A stretch of DNA of 64,000 nt from Okamejei kenojei (taxonomy: Eukaryota), in the NCBI GenBank assembly GCA_035221665.1, contig CM069157.1, positions 21,824,001 to 21,888,000 on the forward strand. The letters run 5' to 3'. Positions 953 to 59,016 of the stretch are shown here, one piece after another. A model generated the notes under the pieces. The model ran no database searches. It worked only from the letters and a program-made list of their open reading frames with translations, and was not told the DNA's origin. The position numbers and the translations under genes are program-made. Position 1 is the stretch's first letter. The number at the start of each line of letters is the position of its first letter.

Positions 953-1490
953 TGTGAAAGTTTGTTTTTATAAAAAGCAGATAGCACAGCCGTTGAAGGT
1001 AGACCATGGCAGTCTTTAATCAATTCGTCAGACGGATGTGGCGAGATTACAATCAGCACAAACATTGCTCAGTGCTTCTTGTGCTCCCACTCACAGAACA
1101 AAGGCGAGTTAGCACAATTAGACATTTTTCTTATCATTAAAACACTCCTACCAAGTCTGAATATGGCATGACTGAAAGATTCTGTAGCCTTTCACAATAT
1201 AGGTAAAGCTGGGTCCAAATCGAGCTCACGCAATGACAAGTTATTACTTATCTCTGGAGCGTCAGCTATTTTCTTCAATCTTGGCTTCTTTATGGCCTTG
1301 AAGAGGCACATGTTATTACTGCAGGCGGTCATCTTAATGTCTTTATTGAAAAGACAACCTGTTCTCCATATTGTGTTTCATATAATTTACAAAGTCATTC
1401 AGACTTGGCACCGAGCCATTCTTTTGTTCTACTAATCCATGCTTTTGTAGATGAACGACTCCTTTTTAGATTTGACTATTAGCTGTTTCA
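953..1490 (-). repeat. 3' LTR of inner element
   Basis: 538 bp; preceded on - strand by PPT AAAAAGGAGGGAA (1491-1503). Confidence 0.92.
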
Positions 1491-1505
1491 TTCCCTCCTT
1501 TTTAT

Positions 1506-1696
1506 CAAACGTGATAACATTCAAAGTCCTCGGTAGGTACACACAATGGTTCCAAGTATTATAGCAGTATTAGCCGAATGATATAGACATAATGTATCAC
1601 AGTACCTCAAAGTCCACCAAACCAAAGGTATGGCAACCAGTTCAATAGTACCCCAAAGTCCATCCGACCAATGGTATGGCAACCAGTTCTCACTGT
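1506..1696 (-). pseudogene. env transmembrane-anchor tail of inner ERV (with a ~45-bp tandem duplication)
   Basis: DSENWLPYLWFGGL*GTVIHYVYIIRLILL aligns with the outer env DRECWPFSMFGGIWGMIIHYGFIVLL; lies directly before the PPT. Confidence 0.75.
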
Positions 1697-2436
1697 CTTC
1701 ATTGACAACCATTCTGATGAAGCCTGTTTAGGGTCAATGGATCAGGTGCCACCTATAGGCGGTGTAATCCTTTCAGCCGATATTGGGGTTGTGCCATAAA
1801 GTTTGCACCTGTCCGAGGGTGTTGCCAGTCTCTTCATAGATCATTGCACAGGTGAGGTGCTCCCCCCACCCCCCCTGTGGTGTGGTTTATCACCTTGATC
1901 TAGATGCTAGCGTATCCGTGGGCAGCTTCTCCTAGTAGGTTTGGATGGCCTGCTTCCACATCACCATGTAGAAGCGGCTGCTTGACTGGAAGCCAAAGAC
2001 AAAGCCAGCGTAGATTGCAGTCTGTGTTGATGTAGAAGGTGCCATTGAAGTTGAGGGCATTAAACTCCTCAAATCCGTCAGCAAGGCCAGGGTCAGAGTT
2101 GGCGGTCTGCAGTAACTCCCTGCCCTTGTTGCGCATTACCCAGTTAGGAACGACGTGCATCGTCCCCTTTGGAACTTCCTCAGGTCAGTCTTACTGATGG
2201 CGCTGTTCTCAGGGCACATGTCATAGATATCTGGGATGTTGTTGTCAAAGTCGTTCTTGCAGGTGTCTCCTCTGCTGTCACCATCGGCATCGATCTGGTC
2301 AGGGTTGGGAACAAAACAGCAATTGTCCTTCTCATCATAAACACCATCATTGCCATCCTCATCATTGTCCTGATTGTCATCACACTGATTACCCACCAGG
2401 TCTGAGTCATTGTCTTCCTGAATAGGGTTAGGTATA
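1697..2436 (-). pseudogene. THBS2: Captured intronless thrombospondin (subgroup A, THBS2-like) fragment: type-3 repeats plus C-terminal domain
   Basis: [14 protein letters not shown]...[22 protein letters not shown]...CPENSAIS; [21 protein letters not shown]; [21 protein letters not shown]; QTLWHNPNIG*KDYTAYRWHL; GFIRMVV. Contains stops and short deletions. Confidence 0.88.
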
Positions 2437-2566
2437 ATCTCTTTCAAGAGGTCCATCTGTTTCAAAATGTTCAGCTTCTCTCTCTTTAGACCCTTGGTCA
2501 TATGATAGAGCTCAAAATGCTTCAAGATTGTTGTTCAAATGTGGTTTGTCTTTCCGAAGATGTGAC

Positions 2567-3447
2567 CAAAGGCTTTGCACTTCCTTCTGATATATAAAGA
2601 TGTTCTTTCTTCTGCATGGATCAGCTTTACATGGCACTGCTGGTAGCGATCAATCAGAAATACTTTGTTACCTCCTGGGTGGGGGCAAGGTCTTTCACGC
2701 ACCTCTTCATGCTGCTCTTTTATGTGTTTCTTAAGTCCGTCAACACCTCTGTAAACAGCACAGCAACCCTTATACTGACATCAATACACGGTGGGGAAAT
2801 CTTCCCTTTCCAAGTTCCAAGACTTTGGTTTCCGGCCACGTTTCTGTCCAGATTGTTTCCTCACATCCTTAATATTGCACTTCTTAACTGGTAACTTACT
2901 CTTCTTCTTCCAATATGGTTGAAAAGACTCATCTGAAGAGCCATTCTTTTGTTACTTTTGTTTCTCTGTCATCTTCACTTGATAAATACCTTTCAGAAAG
3001 TTCACTGTACTCCAATCCATCCACAACATCATTTCTTATAGAACAAGTTGCTTCATTGCAGTTAACTTTTTTTTTCACATTTAATGGTTGAGTTGCATCT
3101 TGTACCTGAACTTTTTTTACCAAGAGCACTTCTGTATATTCAGGAACTGAGCACAAGAACATATCCTTCTTCAATGGGGATTCCGAGTTGTCCACATTCA
3201 CTGACCGTGAAGTAGTTCCGCTATATGTACAAGACTGAAAGTCTGCTAACACTGGGACAGGTTGATGCTTCGCAACATTATCACCCTCACTATTTTTAGT
3301 CACTGTTCCATTCCGAGGTGAAAGGGTTATTGAACCATCCAGAACTTCCTCCATTGAGTTCTTATTTCTACTGGATGGGCACTGTCCCTCAATCAAAACA
3401 ACGCTGCGATTTGAATGCATGTCCAAGATGTAACTGTAGCCCTCTGT
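2567..3447 (-). pseudogene. ZNF276: Captured intronless ZNF276 middle fragment (linker plus first two C2H2 fingers)
   Basis: SSDESFQPY...EREDFPTVY*CQYKGCCAVYRGVDGLKKHIKEQHEEVRERPCPHPGGNKVFLIDRYQQCHVKLIHAE...AKPL versus recalled ZNF276 EREELPTIYKCPYQGCTAVYRGADGMKKHIKEHHEEVRERPCPHPGCNKVFMIDRYLQRHVKLIHTE. Confidence 0.9.
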
Positions 3448-3449
3448 TA

Positions 3450-3630
3450 TCAGAGTTCTGAACAGTCCTTCTAATTGCGAGGATTCTGCCTGATTCTCCT
3501 CTACCCCATTGCAGACATTGGACTTTGTCTCTGGAACTGGTATGCTATAATGCTCAGAACTATGTTCTCCACACTAGCTTTTCCTTTGTTCTACCTTTTT
3601 AGTTAAGCTTGAATTGAATACATCTATTCA
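3450..3630 (+). repeat. Retroelement 3'-tail fragment inside the captured ZNF276 3' UTR segment
   Basis: Similar to the common tail family also seen near 20241-20355 (agaa.tat.ttct.ca.t...ctttg...cta). Confidence 0.45.
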
Positions 3631-3709
3631 TGTTAATCCTTTGTGTCTTGTTGACATATAAAAAGGGTGCAAGATTCTTTAGACTCATCATTTAGCGGTT
3701 GAATAACTA

Positions 3710-3909
3710 TTAACTGGGTTCCTGCTTAATTAATGTTTCCAAACTTATCTGGCTTGATGATTCAATTTCAGTAGGTTTGTTTTTATCTGTATTCTGGATC
3801 ACGGGATGAACCATGAACTAATGAACATTCAAATTGTGAGTCTTCTCGAACTGCTTCTCACATTGGTCACAAGCAAATTCAAGTTCAGCTTCTGTCTTGT
3901 GCTTGGTCA
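3710..3909 (-). pseudogene. ZNF276: Captured ZNF276 C-terminal fragment (last C2H2 finger to stop)
   Basis: TKHKTEAELEFACDQCEKQFEKTHNLNVH*FMVHPV...IKQEPS* versus recalled ZNF276 TKHKAETELDFACDQCGRRFEKAHNLNVHMSMVHPL...VKPEPT*. Confidence 0.85.
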
Positions 3910-4059
3910 GTGTTATAAATGTAAGGACAGTTGTCAGCCTTATTCAGGACGTCTTGGTGCAGGGGTGTTTCCCCAAGTTCAGCCCATCTGGGCCAACCTC
4001 AGGATAAAAAGTATGGTCAATAGCCCCATTGTCCTTTCTTGGTTCTTCTCCATTTATAG

Positions 4060-4420
4060 TCAATCGCATCAGATGTCTCCAACGGGGGTAATCTTCAATC
4101 TTCACGGCGGTTGGTGTCATAGTAGCACCTGGTACAGTCCTCTCCAAAGCAGTCCCAATTTTGTCCGATCCTAGTACCTTATCAGTACATAGTCTCCCAG
4201 TAGTATGGACTGTGTCTGTGTTCAACTGGCAGTGGCTTCTGCGTTTTCAACCCCTGTGAATGCAAGACTGATAAGGTTGTGCTTAATTGCTGTGCGTATG
4301 TAATTAATTAATTGATGTGGGCCTGTAGGCCATAACTAACTTCCACACTCTTTAGTGTCCTATTCATTCCCTCCACTAATCCAGAATTCTACGGGTGGTG
4401 GGGGATGTGTGATCACTCTT
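4060..4420 (-). pseudogene. Integrase C-terminal remnant of inner ERV
   Basis: HIPHHP*NSGLVEGMNRTLK (retroviral IN core motif) and GDYVLIRY...WRGLYQVLL.TPTAVKIEDYPRWRHL (GPY/F module). Confidence 0.85.
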
Positions 4421-5429
4421 TAACTACCTACAAGGCAGACCCTTTAAAAATAGATCATTATATTAAAAAAAAAATAAAAAAAATATTCCCAATTGTTCCA
4501 ATCCATCTCCCCAAATTTACAGTTTCAAATTAACAGATTTTGTTCTGAGATAAAGGCATCTCCAATCTCATCTAACACATCTACCAGAATGCCTCGTGGC
4601 CATCGTGGAATTCAGGTCTCTGTTTGAACTCAATTCAAAAGGTAAGAAATAGGAAAAAAAACTTAAACAAAGAATAAACAATTAATTTGCATAAATTGCA
4701 AGCTCATTCAATGACATCCTATTTCACCTGACATGGACCATTTCATCAAAAGGGGTATATATATATATAAATATGTAAATATAACCTGTTACTTGATGTC
4801 AAGTATCCCGATATGCTTTGGGAGAAATAGAAAAAAACATAGCAAAATTCTGAACACATTAAAATGAAGCTGCCAGTATCTTGTTATCATAGCCTTGAAA
4901 AGAACACTGAGCTTCTCTAGTCAGATAAGGGACAGAACTTGTTTGAGTGACAACTCGAAAGAACAAGGAGAACTATCTATTGATAAGAGCCAGAACTTCC
5001 TTGAATACTTTTGAAATAGCTTTTCGGTTTTAACAAATACTAACTTTCGAACATTGAAAGAAAAACTAGTACAAAAACAGGTAAAATACACAAATTTAAT
5101 CCGAGCGGAGTTAGCCAAAGTGGCGGAGCCCCGTCGTTTCTAAAAAAATCATGCAAAACATTAGAGACGTCTCTCTATATTAATTTTATACTTTCCTCCC
5201 TTGTCTGACAAAAGCCGTTCTGTTTAAAAAAAATCTTTGTTTCTATGGGAACCAATTTGCAGAATTGATGCAGAATTAGCAAGCTAGTCAGCTTGCAGAT
5301 GTTGTGAACCCGGACTGGGAGATTTGTAAAAGTAGTCTTCTTTGTTGGAGTGAGAATTTAAAATGAACAAAGGGAGTAGTTCAAAATGGGAGTAGTCTGA
5401 GCTGTGACTGGACAGTGATCCTCACCTTC

Positions 5430-5864
5430 CCCATCTTCTATAGACAGTGTCGCCATTGCCAGACATAGGGTCTTGAGAGGACCTCGAGAAGACTTACCGG
5501 TATTGGGTTTGTACTCTTATCAGCTTTCTTTCTCTGCCAGCCCTTACCTCCTATTTGTCTGCCCACTGAAATTCCATCTGAAGTACTTTCTAATATTTTA
5601 ATAGTTCTGTCTTTATTCCACAATTTAATTCCCCTTTTACAAGTATAATTCATCCAACCACTATCTTGCATCTCCACCCACTTCTTTTCTGCCTCTCTCT
5701 CTCTCTCTTCAATAGTCTCCATATTCCACATGCCTCCTACAGGTCAAGACACATTACTCCAACGTTTGGTCAATTTATAATACAAAATGCTATAATCCTT
5801 GTAAACAAATAACACACGTGTTGTACAGCTGTCTTTCCGTCACTCTTATCCAAATTATTTCCAT
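5430..5864 (-). pseudogene. gag N-terminal (matrix-like) remnant of inner ERV
   Basis: Follows the leader; ATG-(G)GAAAT reads M(G)NNLDKSDGKTAVQHVCYLF and later (W)PVGGMWNMETIEE; heavily degraded. Confidence 0.5.
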
Positions 5865-5934
5865 GTTTATCCAATCACCAAATCACTTCTTAGTACACAA
5901 CTTAGTACACAAATTGTAACAAACGTTTTCAGCA

Positions 5935-6220
5935 TGTTAAGCCCAATCCTTTATTTGTGACAAACCGTTGCCATCTGTAAAACCCAATCTGGTTTCTCTC
6001 TCTGGTAGCAAATTCACAAGTCTTTTCAAAACACACATTGTCTTTTCAATACGCATCTTTTCAATACACACTAGTGACAAAAAACGTTGTAGTCTGCCAT
6101 GCCCAATCCTTTAATTGTGACAAAACCTCTTTGGTCTGCCGTGCCCAATCCCTTAATCATTTCCAACACACAGGCCAATCCTTTACTCATTTCCAATACA
6201 CAAGCCAATCCTTTACACAA
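5935..6220. repeat. Short tandem repeats in the ERV leader
   Basis: Recurrent GCCCAATCC(T/C)TTA and TTTCCAA(C/T)ACACA.GCCAATCC units. Confidence 0.6.
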
Positions 6221-6419
6221 ATGGTCTTACCTTCGCTGTCTGCTTCTAAGGATCTTGTCTGGAACCAGGTCAATCAGGACTGAGGGACCTTAGTTTTTTA
6301 CCGGGAGCTTCTTCAGGAGGCCATACTGCAAAGGGTCCGACTAGAGCTCAGTTTTCTCCCCTTCAGATCCCGGTCAACTGCACCCTCTTACTCAGTCATC
6401 TGTTGCTGGTTCCAGCTAG

Positions 6420-6439
6420 ATCCCTGCCGACTACAGCCA
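6420..6439 (-). promoter_or_regulatory. Primer binding site, tRNA-Ser-like
   Basis: - strand TGGCTGTAGTCGGCAGGGAT versus the complement of the tRNA-Ser 3' end, TGGCGTAGTCGGCAGGAT; 2 nt after the LTR CA. Confidence 0.85.
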
Positions 6440-6441
6440 AA

Positions 6442-6980
6442 TGTGAAAGTTTGTTTCTTAAAGAGCAGATAGCAACAACCGTTGAAGGTAGACCATGGCA
6501 ACCCTTAATCAAATCGTCAGATGGAAGTGGCGAGATTACAATGAGCACAAACATTGCTCAGCGCTTCTTGTGCTCCCACTCACAGAACAAAGGCGAGTTA
6601 GCACAATTAGACATTTTTCTTATCAGTAAAAGATTCCTACCAAGTCTGAATACGGCATGTCTGAAAGATTCTGTAGCCTTTCTCAATATTGGAAAGCTGG
6701 GTCCAAATCGAGCTCATCCAATGACAAGTTATTACTTATCTCTGGAGCCTCAGCTATTTTGTTTTCAATCTAGTCTTCTTTATAACCTTAAAGAAGCACA
6801 TGTTATTACTGCAGGCTGCTGTCTTAATGTCTTTATTGAAAAGACAACCTGTCCTCCATATTGTGTTTCATATAATTTACAAAGTCATTCAGACTTGGTG
6901 CCGAGCCATTCTTTTGTTCTACTAGTCCATGTCTTTGTAGAAGAACGACTCCATTTTAGATTTGACTATTAACTCTTTCA
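6442..6980 (-). repeat. 5' LTR of inner element
   Basis: 539-bp copy of 953-1490 (about 91% identical by eye count); on - strand ends ...TTTCACA, then TT, then the PBS. Confidence 0.92.
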
Positions 6981-6984
6981 TTAC

Positions 6985-7810
6985 TGTGTACTAACCAAGG
7001 ACTGTAGTGTTATTGTTAAAATCGATAATAGGAGGGAATGAGAATATTCTAGTTAATAATAAATTATAATATAAAATATTTTTATTAAGTAAAGATTAAT
7101 TTGACTTCTTTGGGTTTGAGTAAACTGAAGCTTTATAATTCTGTGCTGTAGAGGATATGTGGGAATCAGGAAATTGGAGGCCAGCATTCAAGCTGCTTCC
7201 GGTTTTGCCCAGGCAAAAAAAACATTTCAATGGTGGGAGAGAATATACTTCCTGAGAAGATGCTGGCTTCTGTAAACAGAAACCTTGAGAGAGGATGTGT
7301 TTCCTTTGGAGTTGGTCGTTTCTGTAAACAGGAACTTCTGGTTGGTAGCTGACAATCGAAGATTGTTAAGACGGAATTGTAAATGTTGTGCTTTTTGACT
7401 AAGTTCCTGTTTCAATGTTTGTGATCAACAGTTTGTGATTGATAGAACCACAGGATGACAAGAGTATTGTGTTAATGACAAGAATTCTTTGAATGGGTAG
7501 AGCTGTGATTGATTTGTATTAAACGTCATTGCTGCCACTCTGCATAAACATGTGACTAATTTTCCAAAATACTCTAAAAATATGCTGTATGTCTTTGTTC
7601 ATTAGCCCAGGAGGGTTAAGTATCTGTTGCATACTTGACTTTATATCCCTGGCACTCTCGCCGGCTAAATGATCAGTAAAGCTTGTGTTGGTTTACCTAA
7701 TTTATTGTGAGTTGTCTGTTTGGTATTCTGTAAATGGTATTGAGTTTCATTCTGCTCTTAAAATAGAAGCAATTGTCATCCAAATCCTCTGGAGGAAAAT
7801 GCTAATTTCA
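6985..7810 (+). mobile_element. Outer ERV: env tail, polypurine tract (7027-7038) and 3' LTR (about 7039-7810)
   Basis: env frame resumes (KPL-LCTNQGL*), then AATAGGAGGGAA PPT directly followed by TGAGAA; AGTAAA polyA-like signal near 7675; putative end ...TTTCA at 7810 (right boundary less certain). Confidence 0.75.
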
Positions 7811-7957: not shown

Positions 7958-8612
7958 ATCCCTCTGATATTATATTAGTATTAATTTACTCCTTTTACCA
8001 CATGCCCTGCCCTATCCACTCACACATAGCCCCCAATTTGGAGGCACAGAGAGGGAGACACGGAGGCATAGAGGGAGGCACACGAGCCTCAGCTCCATTG
8101 CCTCGCATCCTCGGTGCTTCAGACCCGGAGGGTGGAGTGGGTGGGCGGGCGTGATCCCGACTGAGCCTGCGGGCTGGCAGCGAGGACGGTGAAAAGCAGC
8201 GGGGGGACCAGCCGATCTGTGGCTTCCGCCAGCGTGACAGAGCTGGGCCATGGAAGTGGAGGTGAGCCGGGTGGCAGCAGCCATTATCAACGCGCGGGGC
8301 GCGCGATGAGGTGGCGGCCAGCGGGAGGTGAAAAAATGACTGAGTGGGGCGGGGGGGGGGGGGGATTGAAAGTGCGATGACAGCGTCTGCTTGAATGGAG
8401 AGCGGGTGGCAGTGCCACGAGCACAAGGGCATTGTGACGTTGGCTGCTGCTGATTTAAAGAAAAGAGTAAGCTTTGTGAAGGATTTTATTAAAAATGTGT
8501 ACAGAAAAATGACTAAATTTAATGAGGAGTGGATTTGCGAATATAAAAGTAAAATCGCTAGCAAAATGGTAAAAATCTCGGCGTTTTTGCGTCTGGTTTC
8601 CGCGGAGTAACA
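7824..8612 (+). mobile_element. GC-rich non-autonomous element, Helitron-like, truncated by assembly gap
   Basis: Starts ACTAGACC with a short hairpin (AGACCCG-T-CGGGTCT) and contains a (CA)n tract at 7907-7955; family assignment is inference. Confidence 0.4.

Positions 8613-10455: not shown

Positions 10456-59016
<48,561 letters not shown>

Follow-up and report, generated by a model that had tools for sequence, protein, structure and literature searches.

A ZNF276 copy in reversed order, nested in captured thrombospondin-2 sequence of a skate LTR element, is best explained by serial template switching

The window analysed here, a stretch of 64,000 nucleotides from the skate Okamejei kenojei (contig CM069157.1 of GCA_035221665.1, positions 21,824,001 to 21,888,000 of the forward strand), contains a 6.0-kb non-autonomous LTR element on the - strand (953-6980), and within this element sits a block of the host gene ZNF276. 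The element has features of a class I (gamma/epsilon-like) ERV, namely TG...CA LTRs, a short target-site duplication (TSD), a primer-binding-site-like (PBS-like) sequence and a polypurine tract (PPT); a TSD of 4 bp is linked to this class, and the PBS-like site is a putative match to tRNA-Ser. In the within-window comparison 953-1492 and 6442-6982 are 91.3% identical, and the two LTRs have diverged at 42 of 538 aligned positions (K2P 0.083). The retroviral features are as follows.

6984-6981 and 952-949, at both element ends: GTAA target-site copies, a 4-bp TSD read from the sequence
6442-6980, - strand: 5' LTR, TG...CA, ends read from the sequence
6423-6439, - strand: PBS-like 17 nt led by TGG, 2 nt past the 5' LTR
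4317-4427, - strand: broken remnant of an integrase core, whose best PDB matches are retroviral integrases, weak (E 0.033)
3968-4053, - strand: probable env start, signal-peptide-like and broken, judged from its translation
1491-1503, - strand: PPT, before the 3' LTR
953-1490, - strand: 3' LTR, TG...CA, ends read from the sequence

The integrase remnant at 4317-4427 has no Pfam match, a Pfam search of the element returned neither an RT nor an env domain, and no Pfam match was found in six frames of 3440-3712 or in three frames of 4500-6400. A reading of 4051-4500 as integrase C-terminal sequence gave chance-level matches only and was dropped. The host cargo (~3960-1692) lies between both LTRs of one insertion and appears to have taken the place of part of the internal ORFs, the ends of env being placed by inference. 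The leader that follows the PBS-like site holds degenerate tandem repeats of 30-42 nt (5914-6204), and a 43-nt near-tandem duplication (88%) lies at the boundary of the cargo and the env tail (1601-1689). The element is itself inserted into the 3' end of what looks like an older ERV on the opposite strand, represented on the left by an env TM remnant (601-950, + strand, best PDB E 0.0004) and on the right (6985-7050, + strand) by a purine tract, AGGAGGGAA-TG, which matches the element's own. A ZMYM-type gene follows on the + strand (8000-54300; zf-FCS 22776-23213, QRICH1 domain 53821-54213), and a GC-rich stretch at ~8000-8450, about 1 kb from the 5' LTR, is possibly its promoter. Two further GC-rich stretches, 13738-14475 and 33385-34156, have overlapping ORFs on both strands and are probably repeats.

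The composition of the cargo was read from tblastn comparisons with ZNF276 of Amblyraja, Leucoraja and Rhinoraja, from structure and Pfam matches, and from contigs of 4 of 23 listed sequencing runs (X1, X7, X17 and X19) mapped onto 1500-4500; X17 and X19 are RNA-type, a status guessed by the mapping tool, and the other two are DNA-type. Listed in the reading direction of the - strand, the cargo consists of the following pieces.

3904-3956, - strand: first piece of thrombospondin-2 (THBS2), from a type 3 repeat and matching chain residues 256-273 (PDB 2rhp), ending at the host-type joint 2437-3904
3902-3909, - strand: first TGACCAAG; its TGACCA (3909-3904), common to THBS2 and ZNF276, is the putative switch point, from the overlap of host-type contigs
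3440-3909, - strand: ZNF276 3' piece, with aa 567/568-631 (3909-3713), stop and probable 3' UTR (tblastn, X19 records 20 and 23)
3486-3572, no strand assigned: fragment of a very-high-copy repeat within the UTR stretch (depth 46,000-227,000 in both DNA-type runs, many loose ends)
3440-3446, - strand: permutation joint, a 7-nt overlap CAGAGGG leading from UTR to internal ZNF276 (aa 241-243; X19 records 22 and 23)
2603-3446, - strand: internal part of ZNF276 (aa 242-519), lacking introns and carrying frameshifts and stops (tblastn, host-type contigs)
2515-2608, - strand: first piece of the candidate third template, with 32 aa in an open frame, overlapping the end of the ZNF276 piece at 2608-2603, ends as implied by an X19 contig
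2438-2514, - strand: candidate third-template piece 2, in another frame that stays open through the second repeat and into THBS2
2493-2507, - strand: TATCATATGACCAAG, a ZNF276-compatible 15-mer with the second TGACCAAG inside
1692-2437, - strand: THBS2 again (pieces 2 onward), starting at chain residue 290 and comprising type 3 repeats and the C-terminal domain, with deletions inside (structure and Pfam matches, contigs)

The ZNF276 block thus lies inside a second captured host gene. TSP_3 and TSP_C matches are found downstream of 2437, and a host-type contig joins 3904 to 2437 in both RNA-type runs (X17 and X19, depth 85.2 and 64.5) and in neither DNA-type run. THBS2 therefore stops at 3904 and resumes at 2437, so that the foreign stretch is 3903-2438 (1466 nt), and about 50 nt of THBS2 have been replaced by this insert. 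A reading of the DNA made from the sequence only had overlooked thrombospondin-2 on both flanks and had proposed that the insert is bounded by the direct repeat TGACCAAG. This does not hold, as thrombospondin resumes beyond the second TGACCAAG and the first TGACCA is a plain switch point between THBS2 and ZNF276; the exit to THBS2 lies 55 nt past the second TGACCAAG, and that repeat is therefore not the exit. The 8-mer was likewise rejected as a target-site duplication, since its flanks are not one interrupted sequence and 50 nt of THBS2 are lost. Compared with the X19 host-type contigs, 69 of 1135 ZNF276 sites and 50 of 429 THBS2 sites of the cargo differ (Fisher p 0.0004), in a comparison made against a host of another organism label and across unequal GC content (0.37-0.41 vs 0.50); the difference hints that THBS2 may have been captured before ZNF276. 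Within the THBS2 cargo, a host-type joint at 1784-1929 marks further deletions or replacements, and about 33 THBS2 residues are missing near 2357 (2352-2365).

The two ZNF276 pieces stand in the reverse of their order in the mRNA, as the sequence-only reading had proposed. A 214-aa ORF at 3573-2929 matched six proteins among 733 candidates, all of them batoid ZNF276 and the best at 84% (Amblyraja and Leucoraja); it is not one gene, however, as ZNF276 covers 77% of it and its front part is UTR with the repeat. In the tblastn comparison aa 567/568-631 (3909-3713) precede aa 242-519 (3444-2603) on the - strand. A 922-letter host-type ZNF276 contig (X19 record 20) matches 3664-3909, holds 144 unmatched letters and matches 2603-3145, an alignment that 'goes back 1307', and in the ZNF276 of Amblyraja the distance from the first base of N519 (2603) to the second base of M567 (3909) is 144 nt. 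The agreement between the gap observed and the gap predicted from the protein indicates that the reversed order is real at the nucleotide level and that the internal piece ends at 2603, not at 2567 as had been suggested. The same 144 nt (48 codons, aa 519-567) are absent from the element, so the permutation is open; with these nucleotides missing and 102 foreign nt (2602-2501) ahead of the second repeat, the closed circular permutation proposed earlier is not found. The ZNF276 cargo spans an isoform boundary (aa 365) without an intron and the cargo is colinear with the RNA-type contigs, as partial, intron-free mRNA copies; the continuity of the 3' UTR over 3577-3663 is deduced from its cover by several contigs. 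In this copy the cargo is broken, and it is most likely a passenger with no protein function.

The joint between the two ZNF276 pieces lies at 3446-3440. On one side, X19 record 22 matches 3228-3446 and continues with 815 unlike letters; on the other, X19 record 23 matches 3440-3576 and has 134 unlike letters past 3440. Record 23 is taken as ZNF276 3' UTR because the depths, 14.9 and 14.4, are near the 21.2 of the ZNF276 contig, and on this assumption none of the 8 possible cuts in CAGAGGG yields a GT-AG pair. The joint (aa 241-243) falls inside the block aa 184-365, which is skipped whole in another Amblyraja isoform. It thus appears to be a microhomology joint and not a back-splice, and the earlier suspicion that the junction is mid-exon proves correct, as it is away from an exon edge. 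None of the listed contigs bridges 3446 or 3909, so that both of these joints are seen only in this copy.

The stretch between ZNF276 and the return to THBS2 is of a different kind. In the mapping 2602-2438 matched neither host ZNF276 nor host THBS contigs, and it is not contiguous ZNF276 and looks like sequence of a third host mRNA. A division into two coding-like pieces, separated at 2515, had been noted before the reads were mapped. The from_end values of the X19 contig (17 at 2592 and 46 at 2560, each of which has a second reading) agree with contig ends at 2608 and at 2515, and when applied to X17 records 10 and 11 the same calculation gives their printed ends. The queries available from this segment are short (32-60 aa). 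Word searches with 2608-2438 returned 2 candidates for one frame, none at E 10 or better, and 20 for both pieces, none significant; phmmer against 1.84 billion representatives returned 0 matches, the ESM Atlas no usable match and the PDB 0. A Pfam match to LOC400499 (E 0.079) was dismissed as weak. Both pieces may resemble the coiled coil of the CRACR2A/CRACR2B/RAB44 family, which would make a member of this family a candidate third gene.

The direct repeat is present as first described, with TGACCAAG on the - strand at 3909-3902 and 2500-2493. As an 8-mer it is not rare, with 7 copies in the window (6 on the - strand and 1 on the + strand), and it appears in 31 of 5000 shuffles of 2602-2438. 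The earlier idea that the repeat exceeds chance holds for the 15-nt match of TATCATATGACCAAG (16 of 5000). Only two exact matches of at least three residues link 2602-2438 to the ZNF276 stretch that is missing, AKPL (2578-2567, within the first third-template piece) and YHMTK, and they are in ZNF276 order. A 5-residue exact match is found in 16 of 5000 shuffles and in 2 of 666 genomic tiles, and a 5 + 4 residue match in 0 of 5000 shuffles, both tests having been framed after the match was seen. A post-hoc pattern for the 15-mer is met at 1 of 127,972 positions with zero mismatches, its own site, and at 0 with one mismatch. YHM is invariant in 5 of 6 ZNF276 proteins (the remaining one is an isoform that stops short of it), and with the 8-mer this means that at least 13 of the 15 letters of TATCATATGACCAAG must equal the ZNF276 mRNA (the other two are the wobble letters of the Y and H codons). 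THBS2, for its part, carries TATAACACTGACCA vs TATCATATGACCA. The 15-nt match is improbable by chance and may be causal.

The mosaic belongs to a family of copies. Sibling contigs bridge 2437 in three runs (X17 record 10, 2195-2591; X1 record 5, 2203-2483; X7 record 27, 2287-2473), X17 record 10 also bridges 2500 and 2515, and X17 record 11 (2565-2843) bridges 2603. Each of these contigs extends at least 31 letters to either side of the joint, and their divergence from this copy is about 6-13%. In both DNA-type runs, X1 and X7 (organism labels A and C), all 30 bins are covered by numerous differing contigs, and chimeric contigs are present in X17, whose RNA status is guessed. The mosaic was amplified after its assembly, and the family is shared by at least two organism labels. 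A direct joint of 3902 to 2492, to be expected if the repeat had bounded the insert, is absent among the best 15 of 31 joints. At the other edge of the cargo, X1 record 8 aligns over 4197-3968 and then diverges; its exit at 3968 suggests relatives without this cargo or with another, and the boundary of virus and cargo probably lies near this position.

We propose that template switching by reverse transcriptase (RT) very probably caused the mosaic, through LTR-mediated retroposition with serial switches among at least two, and probably three, host mRNAs. The env region of an ERV derivative would have been replaced by host mRNA pieces through repeated switches at microhomologies of 6-7 nt. During minus-strand synthesis RT would leave thrombospondin-2 at 2437, copy two pieces of a third mRNA (2438-2608), switch at 2603-2608 to ZNF276 and copy it up to 3446, jump at CAGAGGG to the ZNF276 3' UTR and copy this to 3909, and finally rejoin thrombospondin-2 at TGACCA, about 50 nt upstream of its departure point; the mosaic would then have been copied many times as a non-autonomous element. 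The order of the ZNF276 pieces would be reversed because RT jumped backward, not because the template was a circular RNA. Overlaps of 6 nt (3904-3909) and 7 nt (3440-3446) were read from contig ends and that of 6 nt (2603-2608) was deduced. The weak integrase match and the lack of a detectable RT mean that the role of the enzyme in making the joints is inferred; the third template and its ends are likewise placed by deduction, and a single excursion of RT seems preferable to several rounds. The sequence-only reading had offered several RT jumps on one mRNA as one of its two explanations, of which the jumps are supported, with three RNAs instead of one. Plain serial switching leaves the 15-nt match (16 of 5000) unexplained.

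The readings that account for this match differ in the origin they give to the 15-mer, and luck is a further possibility. It may be native to the third mRNA, a tentative reading that we consider possible without favouring it, in which case the third mRNA's cDNA would have annealed to its look-alike in ZNF276 and so recruited that mRNA. RNase H would have cut ZNF276 there, so that the 5' fragment was copied first and the 3' fragment, starting at TGACCAAG, second, and the broken end would have forced RT onto THBS2, where a similar motif lies 50 nt from the exit. The repeat would then mark a loop in the path of RT and not the template, an account compatible with serial switching. The ZNF276 3' piece begins exactly at the shared motif, the collinear 5 + 4 residue look-alikes occur in none of the 5000 shuffles, and the likeness of the THBS2 motif points the same way; a model established in vitro has the acceptor dock behind the growing end and undergo RNase H cleavage (PMC6088434), and forced copy choice at RNA breaks is described as well (PMC3187697). 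Nevertheless, an origin of the 15-mer in the third mRNA is an assumption, the switch from ZNF276 to THBS2 has a microhomology of its own and needs no cut, the patches lie 71 nt apart in the element but 60 nt apart in the mRNA, and the statistics of this single case were picked after the match was seen. A less likely origin, which we regard as doubtful, is that the 15-mer, perhaps with AKPL, is true ZNF276 brought in by short switches, or that 2602-2493 is a heavily deleted ZNF276 remnant. The identity of at least 13 of 15 letters with the mRNA and the ZNF276 order of both patches speak for this, but the host contig leaves at 2603 and its 144 letters find no match in 2602-2493 at a likeness of 80%; an X19 contig appears to cover 2515-2608, AKPL included, in a single alignment, and the open frame continues through the 15-mer on both sides.

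Two readings invoke a circle. In one, a circular ZNF276 RNA made by back-splicing was retrocopied, with TGACCAAG as the point of both opening and closure; a circular template was the other explanation put forward from the sequence. The reversed order of the pieces, the direct repeat and the LTR context, which Dong et al. found enriched around circRNA-derived pseudogenes (PMC4897178), are what recommends this reading. We consider it largely refuted and scarcely credible: 144 nt are missing, the last exon and the UTR are included, the joint, which lies inside the isoform-skipped block aa 184-365, overlaps by 7 nt and none of the 8 possible cuts there gives GT-AG, and the exit to THBS2 is at 2437, 55 nt past the repeat, and not at 2492. 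A chimeric DNA circle of 1409 nt (ZNF276 3', ZNF276 5', third gene) could alternatively have recombined into an ancestor of the structure THBS2-TGACCAAG-third gene-THBS2 and duplicated the 8-mer. This would explain the repeat directly, and the hypothetical ancestor, which swaps 50 nt of THBS2 for 57 nt, would nearly preserve length; it is nonetheless improbable, as it requires two separate captures of adjoining parts of one third mRNA, and the best 15 of 31 joints include no 3902-2492 joint.

Serial template switching, our preferred reading, has close counterparts among known systems. Tan et al. 2016 describe LTR-mediated chimeric retrocopies with a median microsimilarity of 6 bp at their joints, among them multi-gene chimeras, and cite the mouse four-gene 'Super' retrocopy, HERV-K/FAM8A1 and maize Bs1 (PMC5131818). 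The skate element agrees with these chimeras in that partial mRNAs of several parental genes replace internal ORFs between two LTRs, in the microsimilarity of about 6 nt (6, 7 and 6 nt at the cargo joints, a count that leaves the virus-to-cargo joints aside) and in its non-autonomous amplification. It differs in that it comes from a cartilaginous fish, outside the taxa named in that abstract, and in that two pieces of one mRNA are reversed and the insert is nested in another captured gene; the passages of that study considered here mention no permuted case, its structures being given in the supplements. In the openly licensed literature we found no earlier description of this skate element, which extends multi-gene LTR-mediated retroposition to a skate family. 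The crocodilian CrocERV31 (nectin3) and CrocERV29 (KIT-ligand) are env-region captures of host genes (PMC4299795, in the part considered) and resemble the skate family as multicopy ERVs of non-mammalian vertebrates, shared between species, with host mRNA in or beside env. Unlike the skate cargo, a multi-gene mosaic with stops and frameshifts, they keep single ORFs under purifying selection. CircRNA-derived pseudogenes are defined by a reversed exon-exon back-splice junction, and Dong et al. 2016 note that passage of RT across open RNAs can mimic non-colinearity (PMC4897178, in the part considered); the skate cargo shares with them the non-colinear order, the LTR neighbourhood and the lack of poly(A), but its joint is a mid-exon microhomology joint to UTR and the circle is not closed. 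The skate cargo is a clean example of a permuted retrocopy that resembles a circRNA product but is not one. Acceptor invasion and forced copy choice would explain how an acceptor is recruited by pairing behind the growing end, and also how it is cleaved; the sources describe acceptor invasion for homologous viral RNAs in vitro (PMC6088434 and PMC3187697, in the parts considered), whereas here it is invoked for a short chance likeness of unrelated host mRNAs. On this speculative view, which we hold to be possible but rather unlikely, the TGACCAAG repeat would be a fossil of acceptor docking and a chance 15-nt likeness would have chosen the ZNF276 mRNA from the packaged pool. With similar caution, RNase H might then have split ZNF276, and RT might have copied the fragments in reversed order and returned to the element RNA at the same motif. 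If docking is true, patches lying behind the joint, in addition to the microhomology at it, would guide the non-homologous capture of host genes, some apparent circRNA retrocopies would be products of that path, and a rule for which mRNAs retroviruses capture could be tested genome-wide.
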